This document shows, piece by piece, positions 19,362 through 54,170 of a stretch of DNA of 64,000 nucleotides. Each line of letters begins with the position of its first letter. The stretch's first letter is position 1. The stretch covers positions 64,001 through 128,000 of IMG/VR virus record IMGVR_UViG_3300023174_000057. One strand, written 5' to 3'. The translations under genes and the position numbers were made by a program. Under the pieces are notes generated by a model. That model ran no database searches and was not told the origin of the DNA. It saw only the letters and a program-made list of their open reading frames with translations. Source of the stretch: a virus.

Positions 19362-22300
19362 ATGACTCTCGGCAACCTCGTCCTCTCTGGTGCCCGCGCC
19401 GTCGCCCCCGTGGGCAAAGTCCCGATCACGGCGAACATCATCGAGTTCGTCGAGGAGCCGTGGGGGCTGGGGATGCAGTTGTTCCCGATCCAGAAGATCA
19501 TCCTCAAAGCTCACTACGGCCTCCCGCTGGACGACACGCAGACCTTCACGGTGACTGATTGGCGGCGGCAGAACGCTCGCCAGATGACCGAGAAGGAGTA
19601 CCTCGCCTACCTGTACAGCGAGGGACGGTCGAACATCAAAGAGGTGGTGCCGGGGCACGAGCGCCGGGAGATGATTCTTTCCATCGGTCGCCGCAGCGGA
19701 AAGTGCGTGACGGGGGACACCCTCGTCCTCACCGACCGAGGCATTTACCCCATTGTAGAACTGGGCGACCCCAACGGTCCCGAGGTGCAGCCCCTCGCGG
19801 TGAGGGTGGCTCAAGAGGGCGGGGCGTCATCCACCTCTCGGTACTTCTACAACGGGGGCACGAAGCCCACCTACCGGATCACGTCTCACACGGGCGTGTC
19901 CGTGGAGGGTACGGGCAACCACCGGGTGAGGGTGCTGACTCCCGAGGGGGTCATTGACTGGAAGCACTTGGCGGACATCTGTCCGGGTGACGTTCTGGCA
20001 GTCCACCGTTCTACGAACCTCTGGGCTTCCGACCTCGTGGACGTGCGGGCACACCACGTCCGCGCTGTGCGCCGAGGGGCTGTTGTTCAGCCCGACACGT
20101 TCGACGAGCAGTGGGGACTTCTCATGGGCTACTTGGTGGGGGACGGCTCGTGGACCAACCGCACGTCCCTCGCCATTACCGTCGAGCACCCCGAGACCCG
20201 CACCGAGGTCGAGTCCCTCTTTACCGAACTCTGCGGGAAGTGCTCGTTCACGCACGACAAGCGCACGGCCCGCACGGGTGCCGTGAGGGTGTCTGACAAA
20301 GCCCTTCGGGAGTTCATGCACCGTCTGGGTTTCGACTGGGGCTGCGGGTCCCACACCAAGAGAACTCCGTGGGTGGTGCTGCGCTCCCCACGTCCCGTCG
20401 TTCGTGCCTACCTCCAAGGGCTCTTTGAGACGGATGGCACGGTCACGTCGGGCGGGATGTCGGTCTCGTTCTGTTCCGCCTCCCGTGATCTCGCCCGCGA
20501 GACACAGGTGCTCCTGCTCAACTTCGGGGTGGTGTCCCGCCTGCGGGTGAAGCACAACCGCAAGCTGAACCGGGACTACTACGAGGTCACGATCCGAGGG
20601 CTGCGGTCTCGACGCACCTTCGCCCGCGAGATTGGGTTCCGTTCCCGCAAGAAGCAGGAGCCCTTGGAAGCCGGGTTGGTGGCTCCCGTCCGTGAGGGCG
20701 GTGATACCGAGTCCGTGCCGCACCAGACGGGGTGGGTCGCACGACTGTTGGCGTCCATTCCCAAGGCGTTCCCCGGCAAGGGTTGGCAGCGCAGCACTCT
20801 CCGGGCGATTCTCGGCAATGTATGCAAGCCGGGAAGCCGTGAGGACCTCACATACAGCCGCATCCGTGCGTTCATCCCTGTCGCGGAGGGTTTAGGCGCG
20901 GATTCCGTGGTACTGGACCACTTCCGCGAACTGTTGCGGACGGACTACTTCTTTGACCCCGTGGTGTCCGTCACGCCCGGTGAGGCACGGGTCTACGACC
21001 TCAACGTGCCCGAGGGTGAGAGCTTCGTTGCCAACGGGCTGACCAACCACAACACGACCCTGTCAGCGTGCATTGCCGCGTTTGAGGCATACAAGCTCAT
21101 TTCCAAGGGCGACCCGCAAGCGTACTACGGGCTCCCTCAGAGCAACATGATCCAACTGATCTCGGTCGCCACCGACAAAGATCAAGCGGGTCTGCTCTAC
21201 CAAGAGGTGTCCGGGCACTTCCGTAACTGCGCGTTCTTCGGCCCGTACACCGCGAACAACACGATGAGCTATGCGCGGTTCCAGACGCCCAAGGACGTGG
21301 AGCGGTACGGGGCCTACTCGGACGACCCCAGTGCGAAGGCCACTATCAAGGTCACCTTCCGTAGCTGTGTGGCGAAGGGGCTTCGTGGCGCGGGCAACAT
21401 CGTGGTCATTCTCGACGAGGTGGCGCACTTCACCGACGCGGGGCAGTCTTCCGCCGACGCGGTGTACAACGCCGTCGTCCCCAGCACGTCCGCGTACTCA
21501 CCAAAAGACCCCCTTGATCGTCGCAAGCCCATCGGACAGGTAGAGGGCCGGATCATCTTGATCTCCAGCCCCCTTGGCCGTCAGGGGTTGTTCTACAAGA
21601 TGTTCCAGATCGGCATGGGCGGCGGCATGGCGGCGAGCAATATGCTGTGCATCCAAGCGCCGACGTGGGAGGTGAACCCCACGGTCCCCGCCCACGAGTT
21701 TGAGAAGCACTACCTCAAGGACCAAGCGGTCTTCTTCACGGAGTACGGCGGGGAGTTCAGCGACCGCACCCGTGGGTGGATCGAGCGCGGCGAGGACCTC
21801 GTGGCGTGCGTCAATAAAGACGCTCGACCCCAGCAGCGTGGCATCCCTCGCACCCCGTATTTTCTGGGGCTCGACCTTGGGTTGGTGGGTGACGGCACGG
21901 CAGTGTCCATCGGGCATCTCGATCCCGAGGGGCACATCGTGGTGGACCTCGTGGACCAGATCAAAGCGGGCGTGGGGAAGTACCACACCAAAGAGCGCCT
22001 CGACTTCGACGACGTGGCCGATTGGATTCTGGATCTGTCCAAGCGGTTCTACATACAGGAGGGGATGTTCGACCAGTGGGCGGGCATCCCGCTGGAGCAA
22101 GCCCTCTCCAAGCGCGGGCTGGGCCAGATGAAGGCCCAGCAGATGACGAAACAACTCACGTCCCAGATGTTTCAGAACTTCAAGGACATGATGTGGGACA
22201 AGAAGCTCGTCCTGTACGACCACCCCATCGCGCAGAACGAAACCCACTGCCCGTACATCGCGGAGCTCCTTGAGCTACAGGCCCAGTACCACAGCAAGTT

Positions 22301-50243: not shown

Positions 50244-51014
50244 ATGTCAGTAGTCTTCAACCCCGGACAGACCATCGGGCAGGGTGATCTAGACATCTTC
50301 CTGACCAACGCGGGCGGGTTCCCGGCGAACGCCTACAGCATCACCTACGCCATCTACTACGTCTCCCCCGGACCGCCTGAGACGGAGGTGCTCATCGGGT
50401 CCGCCACCCGCACGCCCGTCAACCCCACGGTGGGCGAGTACTACGCCTCCCTCACCGTGCCCGCGATGGCGACGCCCGGTGACTATCGCATCCGGTGGAC
50501 GTTCCAGCAGTTCGCGGGTTCGCCCCCGCAACAAGTGGTGATGGAGTGGGGCGTCGTCTCGGCAGGGCTCATCGCCGTGGGTGCGTACAGCACCCTCACC
50601 CAAGGGATGATCGACAAGTTGCGGATTTTACTCCGCGACAACGCTCCAGATCGCAACTACCACTTCAGACCCCCGGAGGCCGAAGGCAACATTGGCGCTT
50701 ACAACCGCGTCTTCGGTTACGTCTGGCAGGACAACGAGCTCTTCGAGTACCTAGAGCGCGGCATGGACTGGTGGAACATGATGCCGCCCTCTACGGGCGG
50801 CTTCACCCTCGACCAGATGGTCCAGCAGAAGCCCGAGTGGCGCACGGCGGTCCTCTGGGACGCCATCACCCACGCTTGCTTCGCCCTCGCGTGCAACTGG
50901 GTCGTTGACGAGTTCTCGGTGAGTTCTGTTACACTACTTCACCTATCCCTGCCCGATGGTAGGAAGGTCGAGGTACCCATTGGCGAGCTCTACGACATCT
51001 GCACCGACGAGTGA
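50244..51014 (+). CDS. Neck/head-tail-connector-like protein, N-terminal half, fused to 32-aa split-intein N fragment
   Basis: GGAGGA SD; KLRILLRD...YVWQDNELFEYLE...NWVVDEF|SVSSVTLLHLSLPDGRKVEVPIGELYD. Confidence 0.72.
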   Translation: MSVVFNPGQTIGQGDLDIFLTNAGGFPANAYSITYAIYYVSPGPPETEVLIGSATRTPVNPTVGEYYASLTVPAMATPGDYRIRWTFQQFAGSPPQQVVMEWGVVSAGLIAVGAYSTLTQGMIDKLRILLRDNAPDRNYHFRPPEAEGNIGAYNRVFGYVWQDNELFEYLERGMDWWNMMPPSTGGFTLDQMVQQKPEWRTAVLWDAITHACFALACNWVVDEFSVSSVTLLHLSLPDGRKVEVPIGELYDICTDE

Positions 51015-52357
51015 CCTGTCTCCCCGTCAAGTGTCCGTTCGGTACGGGTTCAACACCCGCGCCGTGATGGAGCTCATCTATGACGGGGAGCTCGTCCTAC
51101 AGGGCCGCAAGATCACCGCTGCGAGCCTCGCCTCCCTCGTCGAAGGGGAGCACTACGTTCGGTGCCGGGAGTGTGGGGCGTCCGCCGCGATGATCCACTC
51201 GGCACACCTGAAGGCGTGTTCCGGCTTGGTTTCGCTGGGCGAGTACCTAGCGAAGCATCCCGGTGCGCCCGTAATGTCGGAGCGGAACAAGGCCCGGAAA
51301 GCCAAGACCCCGGCACAGCGGGTGGCTCAATCACAGAAGCTCAAGGCCCGGTTCCAGACCGACGAGGGTGAACGCACCCGCCGACAAATTGCAGACGCCT
51401 CGCGGCAGATGCAGTCGTCGGAGTCCGGGCAACGCTGCAAGGACCACCTCCGCAAGATGAACGCGGACCCCGCCGTCAAAGCGCAACGTAGGGCCGACAC
51501 CAAAGCCCGGTGGGAGTCGGGCAACCTTCGTGAGACGGTCGAAGGGTGGCATCGCGAGCACCGCGACGAGTCCCTGTCGTCGGCCCTCCACGCTAGGCGC
51601 TACATCCAGCGAAAGCGTACCAAGCTCCACCTTGGGTTCAAGGCCCTCATGGAGAGCAACGGCCTCACCGGGTTCATCACCGAGCACGAGGTCGGGTACT
51701 ACGCCCTCGACGAAGCCCGCCCCGACTTGAAGATCGCTGTCGAGGTAGACGGCTGCTACTATCACTCTTGTCTCCAATGCGGGCTCAAGGGTCCGGGAGG
51801 CACGCTCCGCACGGACAAGGCCAAGACCACCTACCTGACCCCTCGCGGGTGGACGGTGATCCGCATTTGGGAGCACGACATCAACCGCGACCCTATGGCG
51901 TGCCTAGAACGTATCCGCCGACACATCGCGGACAAGGGACGTGAGAACCATGCTGGATGAAGCAACCCGAGCCGCAATCCGCGAAGCCTACCGAGCGGGC
52001 ACCCTCAAGGTCGAAGCCGTGGACCCCGCGACGGGCGCGGCCTCCCTACAGACCGTCACCGCCGTCCTGAAACACAACACCCACCACAAAGACATGGTGC
52101 GGGTGACGCTGGCGGACGGTCGCTGGGTGGAATGCACCGTGGACCACAGCCTCTTCGCGATGGCCGGGGAAGGCGTCACGCCCGTCCTCGCCGGGGAACT
52201 CCGCGTCGGGTCTGTCATCGCCACGGTGTCCCAAGGGGTAGCCGCGGGCGTCGGAGTCGCTTCGGTGGTAGCCCTACCCCCCGAGGAACACACCTACGAC
52301 CTGTCCGTGCCGGGACCGCAGAACTTCGTCCTCGCCAATGGAATCCTCGCCCACAAC
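50916..52357 (+). mobile_element. Split intein locus: IntN 50916-51011, endonuclease gene, IntC 51950-52357
   Basis: Block A-like start at Ser; block B ECTVDH and blocks F/G TYDLSVPGPQNFVLANGILAHN|S lie in a separate ORF. Confidence 0.85.
50956..51960 (+). CDS. Homing endonuclease: zinc finger + helical repeats + Vsr/DUF559-like nuclease
   Basis: YVRCRECG...HLKAC; LDEARPDLKIAVEVDGCYYH...DKAKTTYL..RGWTVIRIWEHDI; start uncertain. Confidence 0.8.
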   Translation: MVGRSRYPLASSTTSAPTSDLSPRQVSVRYGFNTRAVMELIYDGELVLQGRKITAASLASLVEGEHYVRCRECGASAAMIHSAHLKACSGLVSLGEYLAKHPGAPVMSERNKARKAKTPAQRVAQSQKLKARFQTDEGERTRRQIADASRQMQSSESGQRCKDHLRKMNADPAVKAQRRADTKARWESGNLRETVEGWHREHRDESLSSALHARRYIQRKRTKLHLGFKALMESNGLTGFITEHEVGYYALDEARPDLKIAVEVDGCYYHSCLQCGLKGPGGTLRTDKAKTTYLTPRGWTVIRIWEHDINRDPMACLERIRRHIADKGRENHAG

Positions 52358-52579
52358 TCGTACTCCATCGGTGGCGTCTCGTTGGACATCGAGAAGAGCT
52401 CCAAGTACGAGAGCCTGAAGCAGAACGCTGAGTCACAGTTCGACAAAGCGGCGGAAGCCAAGGCCCGCACCGTCAAGTTCATCCGTGGCATCCAGCAGCC
52501 CAAGTACGGCATCGGTATCCGCTCCAGTTTCGGACCGTTTGTAGGTAGAGGGGTGTTGAGCCCCCGTAATTTCCTTTGA
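51950..52579 (+). CDS. Split-intein C fragment (136 aa) fused to C-terminal half of the neck-like protein
   Basis: ...ILAHN|SYSIGGVSLDIEKSSKYESLK. Confidence 0.85.
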   Translation: MLDEATRAAIREAYRAGTLKVEAVDPATGAASLQTVTAVLKHNTHHKDMVRVTLADGRWVECTVDHSLFAMAGEGVTPVLAGELRVGSVIATVSQGVAAGVGVASVVALPPEEHTYDLSVPGPQNFVLANGILAHNSYSIGGVSLDIEKSSKYESLKQNAESQFDKAAEAKARTVKFIRGIQQPKYGIGIRSSFGPFVGRGVLSPRNFL

Positions 52580-52645
52580 ACCGTTCGTAGGCAGCGGGGT
52601 ATTGACTCCTCGAATCAGAGCCCCCGCCCTCAACGAAAAGTATGG

Positions 52646-52681
52646 TATCGGGGTTGACTTCCCCGATACGGGGCTTACGAT
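52646..52681 (+). promoter_or_regulatory. Sigma70-type promoter with inverted repeat around the -35
   Basis: TATCGGGG-TTGACTT-CCCCGATA; TTGACT-N16-TACGAT; ATG 7 nt downstream. Confidence 0.55.
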
Positions 52682-52688
52682 TCGGGTC

Positions 52689-54170
52689 ATGGAAGACCGA
52701 CCCGAAGCCCCGTGCCCCGCCTGTAAACAATCCGTTCCCCTCAAGGGCCTCGCGAAGCACGCCTCGGGGTGTTCGCAATGGGGCACGCTAGGCGTGCCCG
52801 CGCTCCAGTTCAACTGGGACAGGTACTTCAAGCGCGGCGTCTACGCGGACGGGTTGACGGAGGGCACCGACTACGTTCGGTGCCTAGAGTGCCCGGACGG
52901 GGCGCGGGGAGACCGGGGCCTTCGCTTGATGGATCACGTCAAGAAGGTCCACGGCTTGACGAAAGAGGCGTACATCGAACGGCATCCGGGGGCTCTTCTC
53001 AACGTCCCCGGCACCCTAGAGCGCCGCAAGGCTACAGTATCGGAGCGGTACGACGGGGCGACCAACGTGTTCCAAGTGCCCGACGTGAAGGATCGCATTC
53101 GGGACGTGATGGCCGAGAAGTACGGGGGCATGGGGGTGGGTTCCCCAGAGCTCCGAGCGAGGGTTGAGCAGACGAACGAGGTCCGGTATGGGAGTGCCAA
53201 CCCGTTCGGGTCTGACAAGGTGCAGGAGAAGATTCGGGCGACGTGGCGGGAGAAGTACCAGTGCGACAACCCCAACCAGTCTCCAGAGATCATGGCGAAG
53301 CGTATTGCCACGAACCGCAAGACGCACGGCGCGGATCACTACGTCGAGACCGCCGAGTTCAAGGGGAAGTTCAAGGCGGCGAGCCAAGAGCGGTTCAAGG
53401 CGGACCATCCGATGCAATCGAAAGAGGGGCGCGAGTTGTGGGGTGCCGGATGCGTCGAGAAGCTGGGAGTAGATAACCCTCTCAAAGACCCGGACATCTA
53501 TCAGAAGTCCTACGAGTCCAACCTCACCAACCACGGCGGGAAGCACTCGCAGCAGTGCCCGGAGGTGCTGGAGAAGGCACGGGCGACGTGGCGGGAGAAG
53601 TACAACACGGACAACCCGTCGAAGGTCGAAGCTGTCAAGCAGAAGATCAAGGACGTGTGGGAGGGGAAGTACGGGGTTCCGTTTCCGCCGCAGAGCTTGT
53701 GGCTGAACCAGACGCACTCGTCTCCCAACGGGCTGGAGCGGAAGGTTCAAGCGATGCTGCCCGTGTACGTCCTCTACACGGGTGACAAGACGTACAACGT
53801 GCGGTTGCCCGGTACGGCACGGGACAAGTACCCGGACTTCGTGGTGCTGGCCCCGGATCAGTTGCAAGCCTACCAGTCGGGGACGCCCTTGAAGTCCCTT
53901 CGGATTGAAGCCGCCATCGAGGCGTTTGGTTCGTACTGGCACGGCCCGGAGATGACCGGGGTATCTCGCGAGGACCACTACAACGGGGTCATGGATTACT
54001 ACGCCCGGTGCGGCCTTCGGTGTCTGATCCTGTGGGAGCACGACGTGGACAAGCGACCGGGCGAGGTGGCCGACCGGCTTCGGCGGTTCCTATCCGACGT
54101 GGCGGGGTCTGTAACCCATTCGGGCGTCGGGGCCGACCCGTCTGTTCTGGATTTTTTCCGAGGAGCTTGA
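52689..54170 (+). CDS. Homing-endonuclease-like protein: zinc fingers, multiple T..EKYG..NP repeats, C-terminal PD-(D/E)XK/Vsr-like nuclease
   Basis: YVRCLEC..DHVKKVHGL; ATWREKY..DNP repeats; YPDFVV...IEAFGSYWHG...CLILWE. Confidence 0.78.
   Translation: MEDRPEAPCPACKQSVPLKGLAKHASGCSQWGTLGVPALQFNWDRYFKRGVYADGLTEGTDYVRCLECPDGARGDRGLRLMDHVKKVHGLTKEAYIERHPGALLNVPGTLERRKATVSERYDGATNVFQVPDVKDRIRDVMAEKYGGMGVGSPELRARVEQTNEVRYGSANPFGSDKVQEKIRATWREKYQCDNPNQSPEIMAKRIATNRKTHGADHYVETAEFKGKFKAASQERFKADHPMQSKEGRELWGAGCVEKLGVDNPLKDPDIYQKSYESNLTNHGGKHSQQCPEVLEKARATWREKYNTDNPSKVEAVKQKIKDVWEGKYGVPFPPQSLWLNQTHSSPNGLERKVQAMLPVYVLYTGDKTYNVRLPGTARDKYPDFVVLAPDQLQAYQSGTPLKSLRIEAAIEAFGSYWHGPEMTGVSREDHYNGVMDYYARCGLRCLILWEHDVDKRPGEVADRLRRFLSDVAGSVTHSGVGADPSVLDFFRGA

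Follow-up and report, generated by a model that had tools for sequence, protein, structure and literature searches.

Gene layout and host protein

Positions 50244-52579 of the window, the 64,000-nucleotide stretch of viral DNA that was analyzed (positions 64,001 to 128,000 of the IMG/VR record IMGVR_UViG_3300023174_000057), hold the gene of a probable virion protein interrupted by a predicted split intein with serine at both splice junctions. Three overlapping open reading frames (ORFs), each in a different frame, lie on the + strand of this region (Table 1). ORF-N reads through ...NWVVDEF into a 32-residue tail, the N-terminal intein fragment (IntN), which begins with Ser (codon TCG at 50916) and ends at the stop codon 51012-14. 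ORF-C carries the C-terminal intein fragment (IntC) and reads ...AHN, then SYSIGGVSLDIEK, with Ser+1 encoded at 52358-60. The most likely start of the IntC gene is ATG 51950, because the relatives start there, and IntC is then 136 residues long. The two fragments together amount to 168 residues (32 + 136), the size of solved mini-inteins. An earlier reading of the letters and ORFs without database searches (the sequence-only reading) had described the block A-like tail after NWVVDEF, the block B and block F/G motifs of ORF 51950 and a zinc-finger/Vsr-like endonuclease ORF in another frame between the halves. The tail was seen in the ORF and in the alignment of Ser1; T-V-D-H, Y-D-L and ...AHN were found in an ORF that matched Pfam Intein_splicing at 4.9e-13, and the intervening ORF gave a DUF559 match and an invariant CCHC finger, in agreement with that reading.

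A host N-terminal part with IntN, a free-standing endonuclease gene, and IntC with the host C-terminal part, all on one strand, is the layout of the fractured genes of Dassa 2009. The 27-51 nt spacer of those genes is absent here; the cistrons overlap at both ends, and likewise in the relatives. The stop codon of the endonuclease overlaps the start of IntC (ATGCTGGATGA; ORF overlap 51950-51960). At the other end, the conserved N-terminus of the endonuclease begins at 51016 and the sole canonical start upstream is ATG 50956, so that the endonuclease ORF overlaps the IntN coding region (50956-51014).

Table 1. Coordinates of the split locus and its neighbor in the window
Feature	Position	Strand	Remarks
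ORF-N	50244..51014	+	frame 0; 256 aa = 224-aa N-extein + 32-aa IntN
N-extein, 224 aa, probable head-tail connector/adaptor	50244..50915	+	colinear with intein-free 297-aa homologues
IntN, 32 aa + stop; Ser1, block A, β1-β2, helix α1	50916..51014	+	
Predicted free-standing homing endonuclease gene, CCHC (ROS/MucR-like) finger + Vsr/DUF559/EDxHD-like core	50956..51960	+	frame 1; Pfam DUF559 1.6e-6
ORF-C	51941/51950..52579	+	frame 2; Pfam Intein_splicing 4.9e-13
IntC, 136 aa; helix α2, NX-motif His42, blocks B, F, G	51950..52357	+	
C-extein, 73 aa + stop, Ser+1 first	52358..52579	+	hairpin, helix, C-terminal arm of host protein
Second predicted free-standing homing endonuclease, DUF7487 repeats + Vsr-like C-terminus	52689..54170	+	neighbor, not part of the intein

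The joined exteins make a protein of 297 residues that is colinear with intein-free homologues of about 297 residues, which read ...DEF-DYSIGGVSLSIEK... across the junction. The closest of these, P0005, is identical to the N-extein at 221 of 224 positions (3 differences) and differs from the C-extein at 2 of 73, namely +1, where P0005 has D and the window S, and +10, where P0005 has S and the window D. Given this colinearity, removal of the intein would restore a full-length protein. The sequence-only reading had proposed that joining restores ...DEF-SYSIGG, and the alignment to intein-free homologues that it asked for places this junction on their DEF-DYSIGG. Its junction peptide VVDEFSYSIGGVSLDIEK did not hold up as a fully tryptic peptide, the preceding K/R being about 19 residues upstream.

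The possibility was considered that the locus is a decaying pseudogene and that the connector function comes from another gene, in the part of the genome beyond the recovered 39%. The genome is incomplete and the region is crowded with selfish nucleases, as such a history would have it. However, the exteins differ from the intact allele of a close relative at only 5 of 297 positions, two of them systematic, internal stops are absent, and a large clade shares the arrangement; decay is the least probable of the explanations considered here. No intact second copy of the host gene or close paralogue of the intein was found in the 166.7-kb record.

The insertion point falls between helix 199-221 and β-hairpin 226-233, within the most conserved stretch of the host protein, where W219, E223, F224, Y226, G229, G230, S232 and L233 are invariant. 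Inteins typically occupy such highly conserved sites. The two systematic differences from P0005 recur throughout the family. Of 98 intein-free alleles, 89 combine D at +1 with an S, T or N at +10, while 118 of 119 intein-bearing alleles pair S or T at +1 with D or E at +10. Positions 225 and 234 of the host model lie on either side of the two hairpin strands, and the Asp lost from +1 may be compensated across the hairpin at +10. The eight intein-free alleles (of the 98) with S or N at +1 and D at +10 could be footprints of intein loss, or else pre-adapted targets.

The host gene belongs to a head module and has the genes for the head maturation protease and the major head protein, as well as a fibre-like gene, upstream of it. 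An intein-free homologue, gp319 of Tunturiibacter phage Tunturi_5 (28% identity), is annotated as a head-tail connector. PHROG 17327, also a 'head-tail connector', was the only family matched, by 23 of 44 intact homologues with a best E-value of 8e-5, over a region that spans the insertion site. An AlphaFold2 model of the host, made from intein-free P0005, had a mean predicted local distance difference test score (pLDDT) of 72 and consisted of an immunoglobulin (Ig)-like N-terminal sandwich and a helical domain. With VIA-align, the helical domain (116-220) matched chains of the portal-tail, tail or virion assemblies of cyanophage P-SCSP1u, crAss001, Pa223 and a gene transfer agent (GTA) particle, which we take to be adaptors, at Z-scores of 7.1-8.2, a range that is within noise for helical folds. 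A profile search of the PDB with the host alignment gave no match, Foldseek with the host model gave just generic Ig-like matches to the N-terminal β-sandwich, and the host's counterparts in BFVD and the ESM Atlas were unnamed viral proteins and 'hypothetical protein' viral clusters, respectively. On this moderate evidence the host is a probable head-tail connector or adaptor. The 'neck-like' virion structural host of the sequence-only reading is thus kept as a gene of the virion module, in this more specific and more guarded wording. In about 1 in 8 of the connector-like homologues, the conserved ...SPRNF(L) end is followed by an additional C-terminal tail of 20-28 residues that is hydrophobic (P0007, P0021, P0038, P0042, P0050, P0053, P0062 and others; also piece 3 of L018).

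Fold, split site and predicted serine chemistry of the intein

The fold was evaluated on a contiguous natural relative, P0187, which is about 56% identical to the C-fragment of the window in alignment A3. The AlphaFold2 model of P0187 had a pLDDT of about 96 over the intein and showed strands β1 (16-20) and β2 (26-30), helix α1 (31-39), a loop (40-44), helix α2 (45-56) and then a β-rich horseshoe. The segment equivalent to IntN corresponds to β1, β2 and α1 of the HINT fold. Foldseek searches with this model retrieved mini-inteins with E-values down to 3e-12 and target TM-scores near 0.8, including Ser1 TFIIB inteins and the cysteine-less Aes123 PolB1 intein. In alignment A3, the end of the window IntN and the start of IntC both fall within the α1/α2 loop of the P0187 model, and the break after helix α1 was for this reason assigned, at the level of the model, to the atypical "S2" split site. 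This site is known so far from AceL-TerL and GOS-TerL (PMC13014065).

The IntC sequence aligned with solved mini-inteins (TvoVMA, Pho CDC21-1, Pho RadA, PI-PkoII) from residue ~30 of these to their end, and the best match of the A4 profile against the PDB was a Ser1 intein, PI-PkoII (2e-17). The Pfam match of IntC covers profile positions 5-95, and a duplication of block A in IntC was considered for that reason; it was ruled out, since IntN and the N-terminal helix of IntC are consecutive in the contiguous relatives.

The residues expected to carry the chemistry are conserved. Ser1 was invariant in 22 of 22 N-fragments at ~30-40% divergence, and IntN follows the pattern S-[VLIM]-x4-[VIL]-x-[VIL]-x-L-P-D-G...I-x-E-L-[YW]. 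Across diverged IntC sequences (alignments A1 and A4), T63, D65 and H66 of block B, D117 of block F and H135 and N136 of block G were invariant. Of the 120 listed ORF-C relatives, 119 were motif-matched; after the terminal HN, 105 of these have S and 14 have T. As the sequence-only reading had it, both nucleophiles of the window intein are Ser, with Ser1 at codon 50916 and Ser+1 at codon 52358. Moreover, IntC His42 was invariant in A1 and A4 and mostly preceded by K/R. The profile around it, "..l-r-H", aligned with "..I-R-H" of PI-PkoII and "S-R-H" of the Mja TFIIB intein, whereas the Cys1 inteins Pho CDC21-1 and RadA had no His at this position in the profile-versus-PDB search. The NX motif is specific for Ser1/Ser(Thr)+1 inteins and contacts Ser1 (Pasch et al. 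2023, PMC10189870); judged by sequence, His42 with the preceding K/R matches the NX motif of Ser1 inteins. The window intein contains two Cys, one in IntN (...ICTDE) and one in IntC (...ECTVDH). Both columns vary among the relatives, and catalysis by this intein would appear to require no cysteine. By its Ser1, its blocks B, F and G and its +1 nucleophile, the element classifies as a class 1 intein that is predicted to splice.

The halves might instead be splice-dead and serve as a non-covalent dimerization module that holds two connector fragments together. Such an arrangement has a precedent in the intein-derived interaction domains that reportedly assemble a fragmented phage ribonucleotide reductase (PMC3045599), and it is true that covalent ligation at the window locus is something we infer. 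Yet Ser1, the block B Thr and His, the NX His, the block F Asp, the terminal HN and the Ser/Thr at +1 are all invariant or nearly so. Furthermore, the contiguous relatives at the same site must splice if the W-x3-EF/DYSIGG core (here and below the slash marks the insertion point) is to be freed. A purely structural role of the halves is therefore improbable.

Allele states, endonucleases and the fractured-gene interpretation

Searches with ORF-N gave 1039 relatives, 120 of which were listed, and searches with ORF-C gave 982, the best 120 of which (90%-identity clusters) were listed. Among the 120 listed ORF-N relatives, 21 were N-fragments of 256-265 residues and 55-98% identity that end in an IntN; in all 21 the IntN starts with Ser after (D/E/N)EF. 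All 120 listed ORF-C relatives carry IntC and a C-extein, nearly all as separate fragments of 206-237 residues. In IMG/VR, 27 loci with an intein at this site were collected, of which 24 were distinct, on contigs of up to 512 kb. The family is large and includes contiguous, split and endonuclease-less states as well as further intein sites in the same gene, all of which the sequence-only reading had missed.

Thirteen loci had the split gene and an orthologous endonuclease ORF of 315-351 residues in the same overlapping layout (L003, L004, L005, L008, L011, L012, L014, L017, L019, L021, L022, L025 and L026). The split was found with a decayed endonuclease in three, namely L010 (no long ORF), L029 (an in-frame stop in the nuclease motif) and L023 (a 3' remnant only), and with nothing but an 89-nt gap between the halves in L018. 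Six loci had a contiguous mini-intein of 159-191 residues (L006, L007, L015, L020, L027 and L028). The gene order is reversed in L024: the endonuclease is absent, and the gene for IntC and the C-extein lies 24 nt directly upstream of the gene for the N-extein and IntN (L024:4495-5930). The 9.6-kb L024 locus contained no further copy of either fragment, and the reversed order leaves only assembly in trans. Halves kept intact after loss of the endonuclease and in reversed order are what would be expected if they work in trans.

These loci also bear on the possibility of a contiguous precursor that splices in cis, made either from one frame broken by hidden sequencing or assembly frameshifts, which the sequence-only reading had named as fatal to its own proposal, or through two programmed +1 frameshifts in the ORF overlaps. 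The ORFs do overlap at both boundaries (50956-51014 and 51950-51960), and in-frame fusions of the endonuclease to IntC occur in P0267, P0278 and P0285. Against this, the same stops and starts were found in independent assemblies of 89-98% identity (P0002-4, P0122-124) and in much more distant loci. Many independent assemblies, at 47-98% identity, share the three-ORF layout, which argues that the split is not a sequencing artefact, and that the family works in trans is shown by the split loci that lack an endonuclease and by the reversal in L024. A slippery motif was not noticed, although the sequence was not scanned for frameshift signals. With this recurrence, the split without endonuclease and the reversal, sequencing error is excluded in practice, and a contiguous precursor of either kind is very unlikely.

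The endonuclease ORF matched Pfam DUF559 (1.6e-6) and REase_MTES_1575 (4e-6) as well as PHROG endonuclease families. An orthologue is present at the equivalent position of 13 distinct IMG/VR loci, and an alignment of 13 orthologues (A5) resolved three parts: a conserved N-terminal motif, ..KRQ...YGFN..; an invariant C-x2-C-x10-H-x3-C finger, with a ROS/MucR match in several members; and a nuclease core with an invariant E, G-C-x-x-H-x-C-x2-C, D and K. The invariant residues of the core are E263, G266, C267, H270, D287 and K290, and the window copy retains every invariant residue of A5. A tblastn search with the window endonuclease against the related loci gave no matches at 1e-5, yet the alignment showed clear orthology at 40-51% identity. 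Some orthologues exceeded the Pfam Vsr cutoff (6e-7 for that of L011). The protein thus resembles the Vsr-like, later named EDxHD, family of homing endonucleases of fractured genes, and DNA cleavage is predicted. In P0267, P0278 and P0285, the Vsr-like endonuclease is fused in frame to IntC and the C-extein, and these fusions resemble an intermediate on the way to a nested endonuclease domain.

Taken together, the locus is interpreted, with a probability of roughly 0.85, as a fractured gene, that is, an essential virion gene interrupted by a functional, naturally split class 1 intein whose halves would splice in trans. In the mechanism proposed, a 168-residue mini-intein would have come to lie in the conserved connector/adaptor stretch ...W-x3-E-F/D-Y-S-I-G-G.... 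A free-standing Vsr/EDxHD-like homing endonuclease gene would then have been inserted in the loop between the first two helices of the intein and would have broken the gene into two cistrons. The three overlapping cistrons would be translated, probably with translational coupling. The 32-residue IntN (β1-β2-α1) of the 224-residue N-extein piece would dock into the 136-residue IntC, Ser1 would undergo the N-O acyl shift, aided by the block B Thr and His and the NX-motif His, and Ser+1 would attack the oxyester. Cyclization of Asn136 and an O-N shift would yield the 297-residue connector with a DEF-SYS junction. The endonuclease would spread itself, and perhaps the intein too, by cutting alleles that are free of the endonuclease, its presumed target.

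Several points weigh against this interpretation. The fold model covers the contiguous P0187 and not the two chains of the window; the conserved N-terminus of the endonuclease has no adjacent canonical start or obvious ribosome-binding site; the profile matches behind the connector role are weak and the structural Z-scores modest; the covalent joining of the exteins is deduced from the features described above; and the record is ~39% complete by CheckV, an intact second copy of the gene being possible elsewhere in the genome.

The comparison of two loci suggests that the endonucleases are still mobile. Both flanks of the gene are 97-98% identical between L020 and L026. L020 has the contiguous intein at the DEF/S site and, at an upstream site, a split intein with a TnsA-like nuclease, whereas in L026 the DEF/S site is split by the Vsr-like nuclease and the upstream intein is absent. 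Between the two intein sites the identity drops to 80.6%, which suggests a recombination or co-conversion tract formed during homing. The differences between these loci would be evidence of ongoing endonuclease mobility.

Known systems and further intein sites

Published fractured genes reportedly break at the canonical intein site (Humberg 2025), whereas the break here lies near the N-terminus of the intein, after α1. In these genes, the two parts of a split intein are separated by a free-standing gene for a homing endonuclease of the Vsr-like kind (EDxHD, I-Bth0305I-type) (Dassa et al. 2009, PMC2677866; PMC3239194), and the 26 published loci all concern DNA synthesis or repair enzymes (PMC2677866). 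The window locus has the same one-strand gene order, a Vsr-related endonuclease and a phage host, and the stepwise model of Dassa, in which a mini-intein is invaded by an endonuclease that is later lost while the parts are dislocated, fits the alleles described here. Unlike in those loci, the host protein is a connector-like virion component, the cistrons overlap in place of a 27-51 nt spacer that often contains a hairpin, the nuclease has a CCHC ROS/MucR-like finger, and a single gene family contains every stage of the model.

AceL-TerL, a Cys1/Cys+1 intein, and GOS-TerL resemble the window intein in being split after the first helix and in residing in metagenome-derived phage genes for morphogenesis or packaging; they are likened here by description and not by sequence. 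Their IntN fragments have 25 and 37 residues, respectively, against 32 here, and both are cysteine-dependent (PMC13014065), unlike the Ser1/Ser+1 window intein. GOS-TerL is a Ser1/Cys+1 intein without the NX histidine (PMC10189870), which the window intein has. Natural atypical splits have IntN fragments of 15-37 residues and use the S1 site (VidaL, PolB16) or the S2 site (AceL/GOS TerL) (PMC13014065). The sequence-only reading had called the short IntN and the double serine unusual. The Ser1/Ser+1 pair stands, but 32 residues lie within the known range, and as a natural, atypically split intein without cysteine PolB16 OarG came first (PMC10189870, PMC13014065).

PolB16 OarG is the only known natural cysteine-less intein that is atypically split, further candidates are lacking (Humberg et al. 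2026, PMC13014065), and it is slow and prone to side reactions (PMC13014065). It shares with the window intein Ser1, presumably a Ser or Thr nucleophile at +1, the NX-motif histidine, a natural split with a short IntN and the presence of non-conserved cysteines only. It differs in being a single sequence from a PolB DNA polymerase that is split after β2 (S1 site, IntN 15 residues), whereas the window family is split at S2, has an IntN of 31-36 residues in most members and up to 43, and comprises more than 100 diverged natural variants. The block B His is invariant in the window family but dispensable in PolB16, and the host here is probably a structural protein. The other natural cysteine-less split inteins that have been described are likewise in PolB polymerases. 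The Ser1 mini- and maxi-inteins PI-PkoII/TkoII and Mja/Mvu TFIIB were the best profile and fold matches and have the R/K-H NX motif, the block B T-x-x-H, and a terminal HN followed by Ser/Thr. They are, in contrast, archaeal, contiguous, only ~20% identical and hosted by replication or transcription proteins.

In the literature, which was covered incompletely, a split intein in a connector or neck gene was not found, split inteins of huge phages were found only in PolB, and genes in three pieces joined by two split inteins were found only as engineered systems. Going by PMC13014065, the window intein would be the second natural cysteine-independent intein with an atypical split; it is not the first, and the fractured-gene type itself was already known.

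Protein engineers want cysteine-free split inteins with one fragment short enough to be synthesized, and the locus with its more than 100 diverged relatives would provide an independent second family whose split site differs, along with natural contiguous controls and possible orthogonal partners. One gene family here displays every stage of the Dassa model of gene breakage by endonucleases, namely the contiguous mini-intein, endonuclease invasion, decay, the endonuclease-less split, relocated halves and in-frame endonuclease fusion, and near-identical genomes differ only in these elements. The exteins appear to have co-adapted, the Asp moving to +10 where position +1 has to be Ser. Fractured genes would moreover be extended from replication enzymes to a virion assembly protein.

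Additional intein sites were found in the same gene of related phages; the window has the DEF/S intein only. A related split intein with a short IntN, Cys1 and a TnsA-like endonuclease sits at LRD(x)/C in the 485-kb genome LR745208 and in several IMG/VR loci. A third site, ...DRNY/S...HN/(S/T)F(R/Q)PP, was seen in contiguous and split forms in a representative search. This third site is five residues downstream of the Cys1 one, and its intein, too, combines Ser1 with a short IntN; P0327 is contiguous there, while P0287, P0289, P0293 and P0305 are split. The connector gene is in three pieces in L010, L014 and L021, with two nucleases, and in L018, with none (L018:3035-5181). The middle piece of these genes consists of the IntC of the Cys1 LRD/C intein and the IntN of the Ser1 DEF/S intein.

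A wider reading is put forward tentatively, at slightly less than an even chance. The huge-phage clade would constitute a large natural library of cysteine-independent S2-site split inteins, orthogonal pairs included. Trans-splicing would be a built-in and possibly timing-relevant step of head-tail joining and not a scar, because the split state outlives both the endonuclease and the reversal of gene order. As part of this reading, the three-piece genes of L018, L010, L014 and L021 would be cases of natural tandem trans-splicing by two short-IntN inteins.

Directly downstream of the C-extein lies a second predicted endonuclease gene. Its ORF spans 52602-54170 and matched Pfam DUF7487 (1.2e-48, four repeats) and the PHROG 3339 homing endonuclease family (1.6e-20). 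LR745208 (L002:1643-3076, minus strand) and many IMG/VR loci have a homologue at the equivalent position, and this endonuclease may drive the exchange of the whole connector region. Similar residues ('KYGIG') are present at the end of the C-extein and at the beginning of ORF 52602, and a target-site duplication was weighed as the explanation. It was dropped because the orthologue of a relative begins at the zinc-finger motif, and for the same reason the true start is probably ATG 52689.

Elsewhere in the same phage, the IntC profile gave weak matches (E-values of 4e-5 to 5e-3) to C-terminal blocks within ORFs of 1071, 1025 and 750 residues, at about 20970-21053 of the window (G000:C1:84970-85053), at G000:C1:45824-45919 and at G000:C1:131194-132240. 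These three are probably other inteins.

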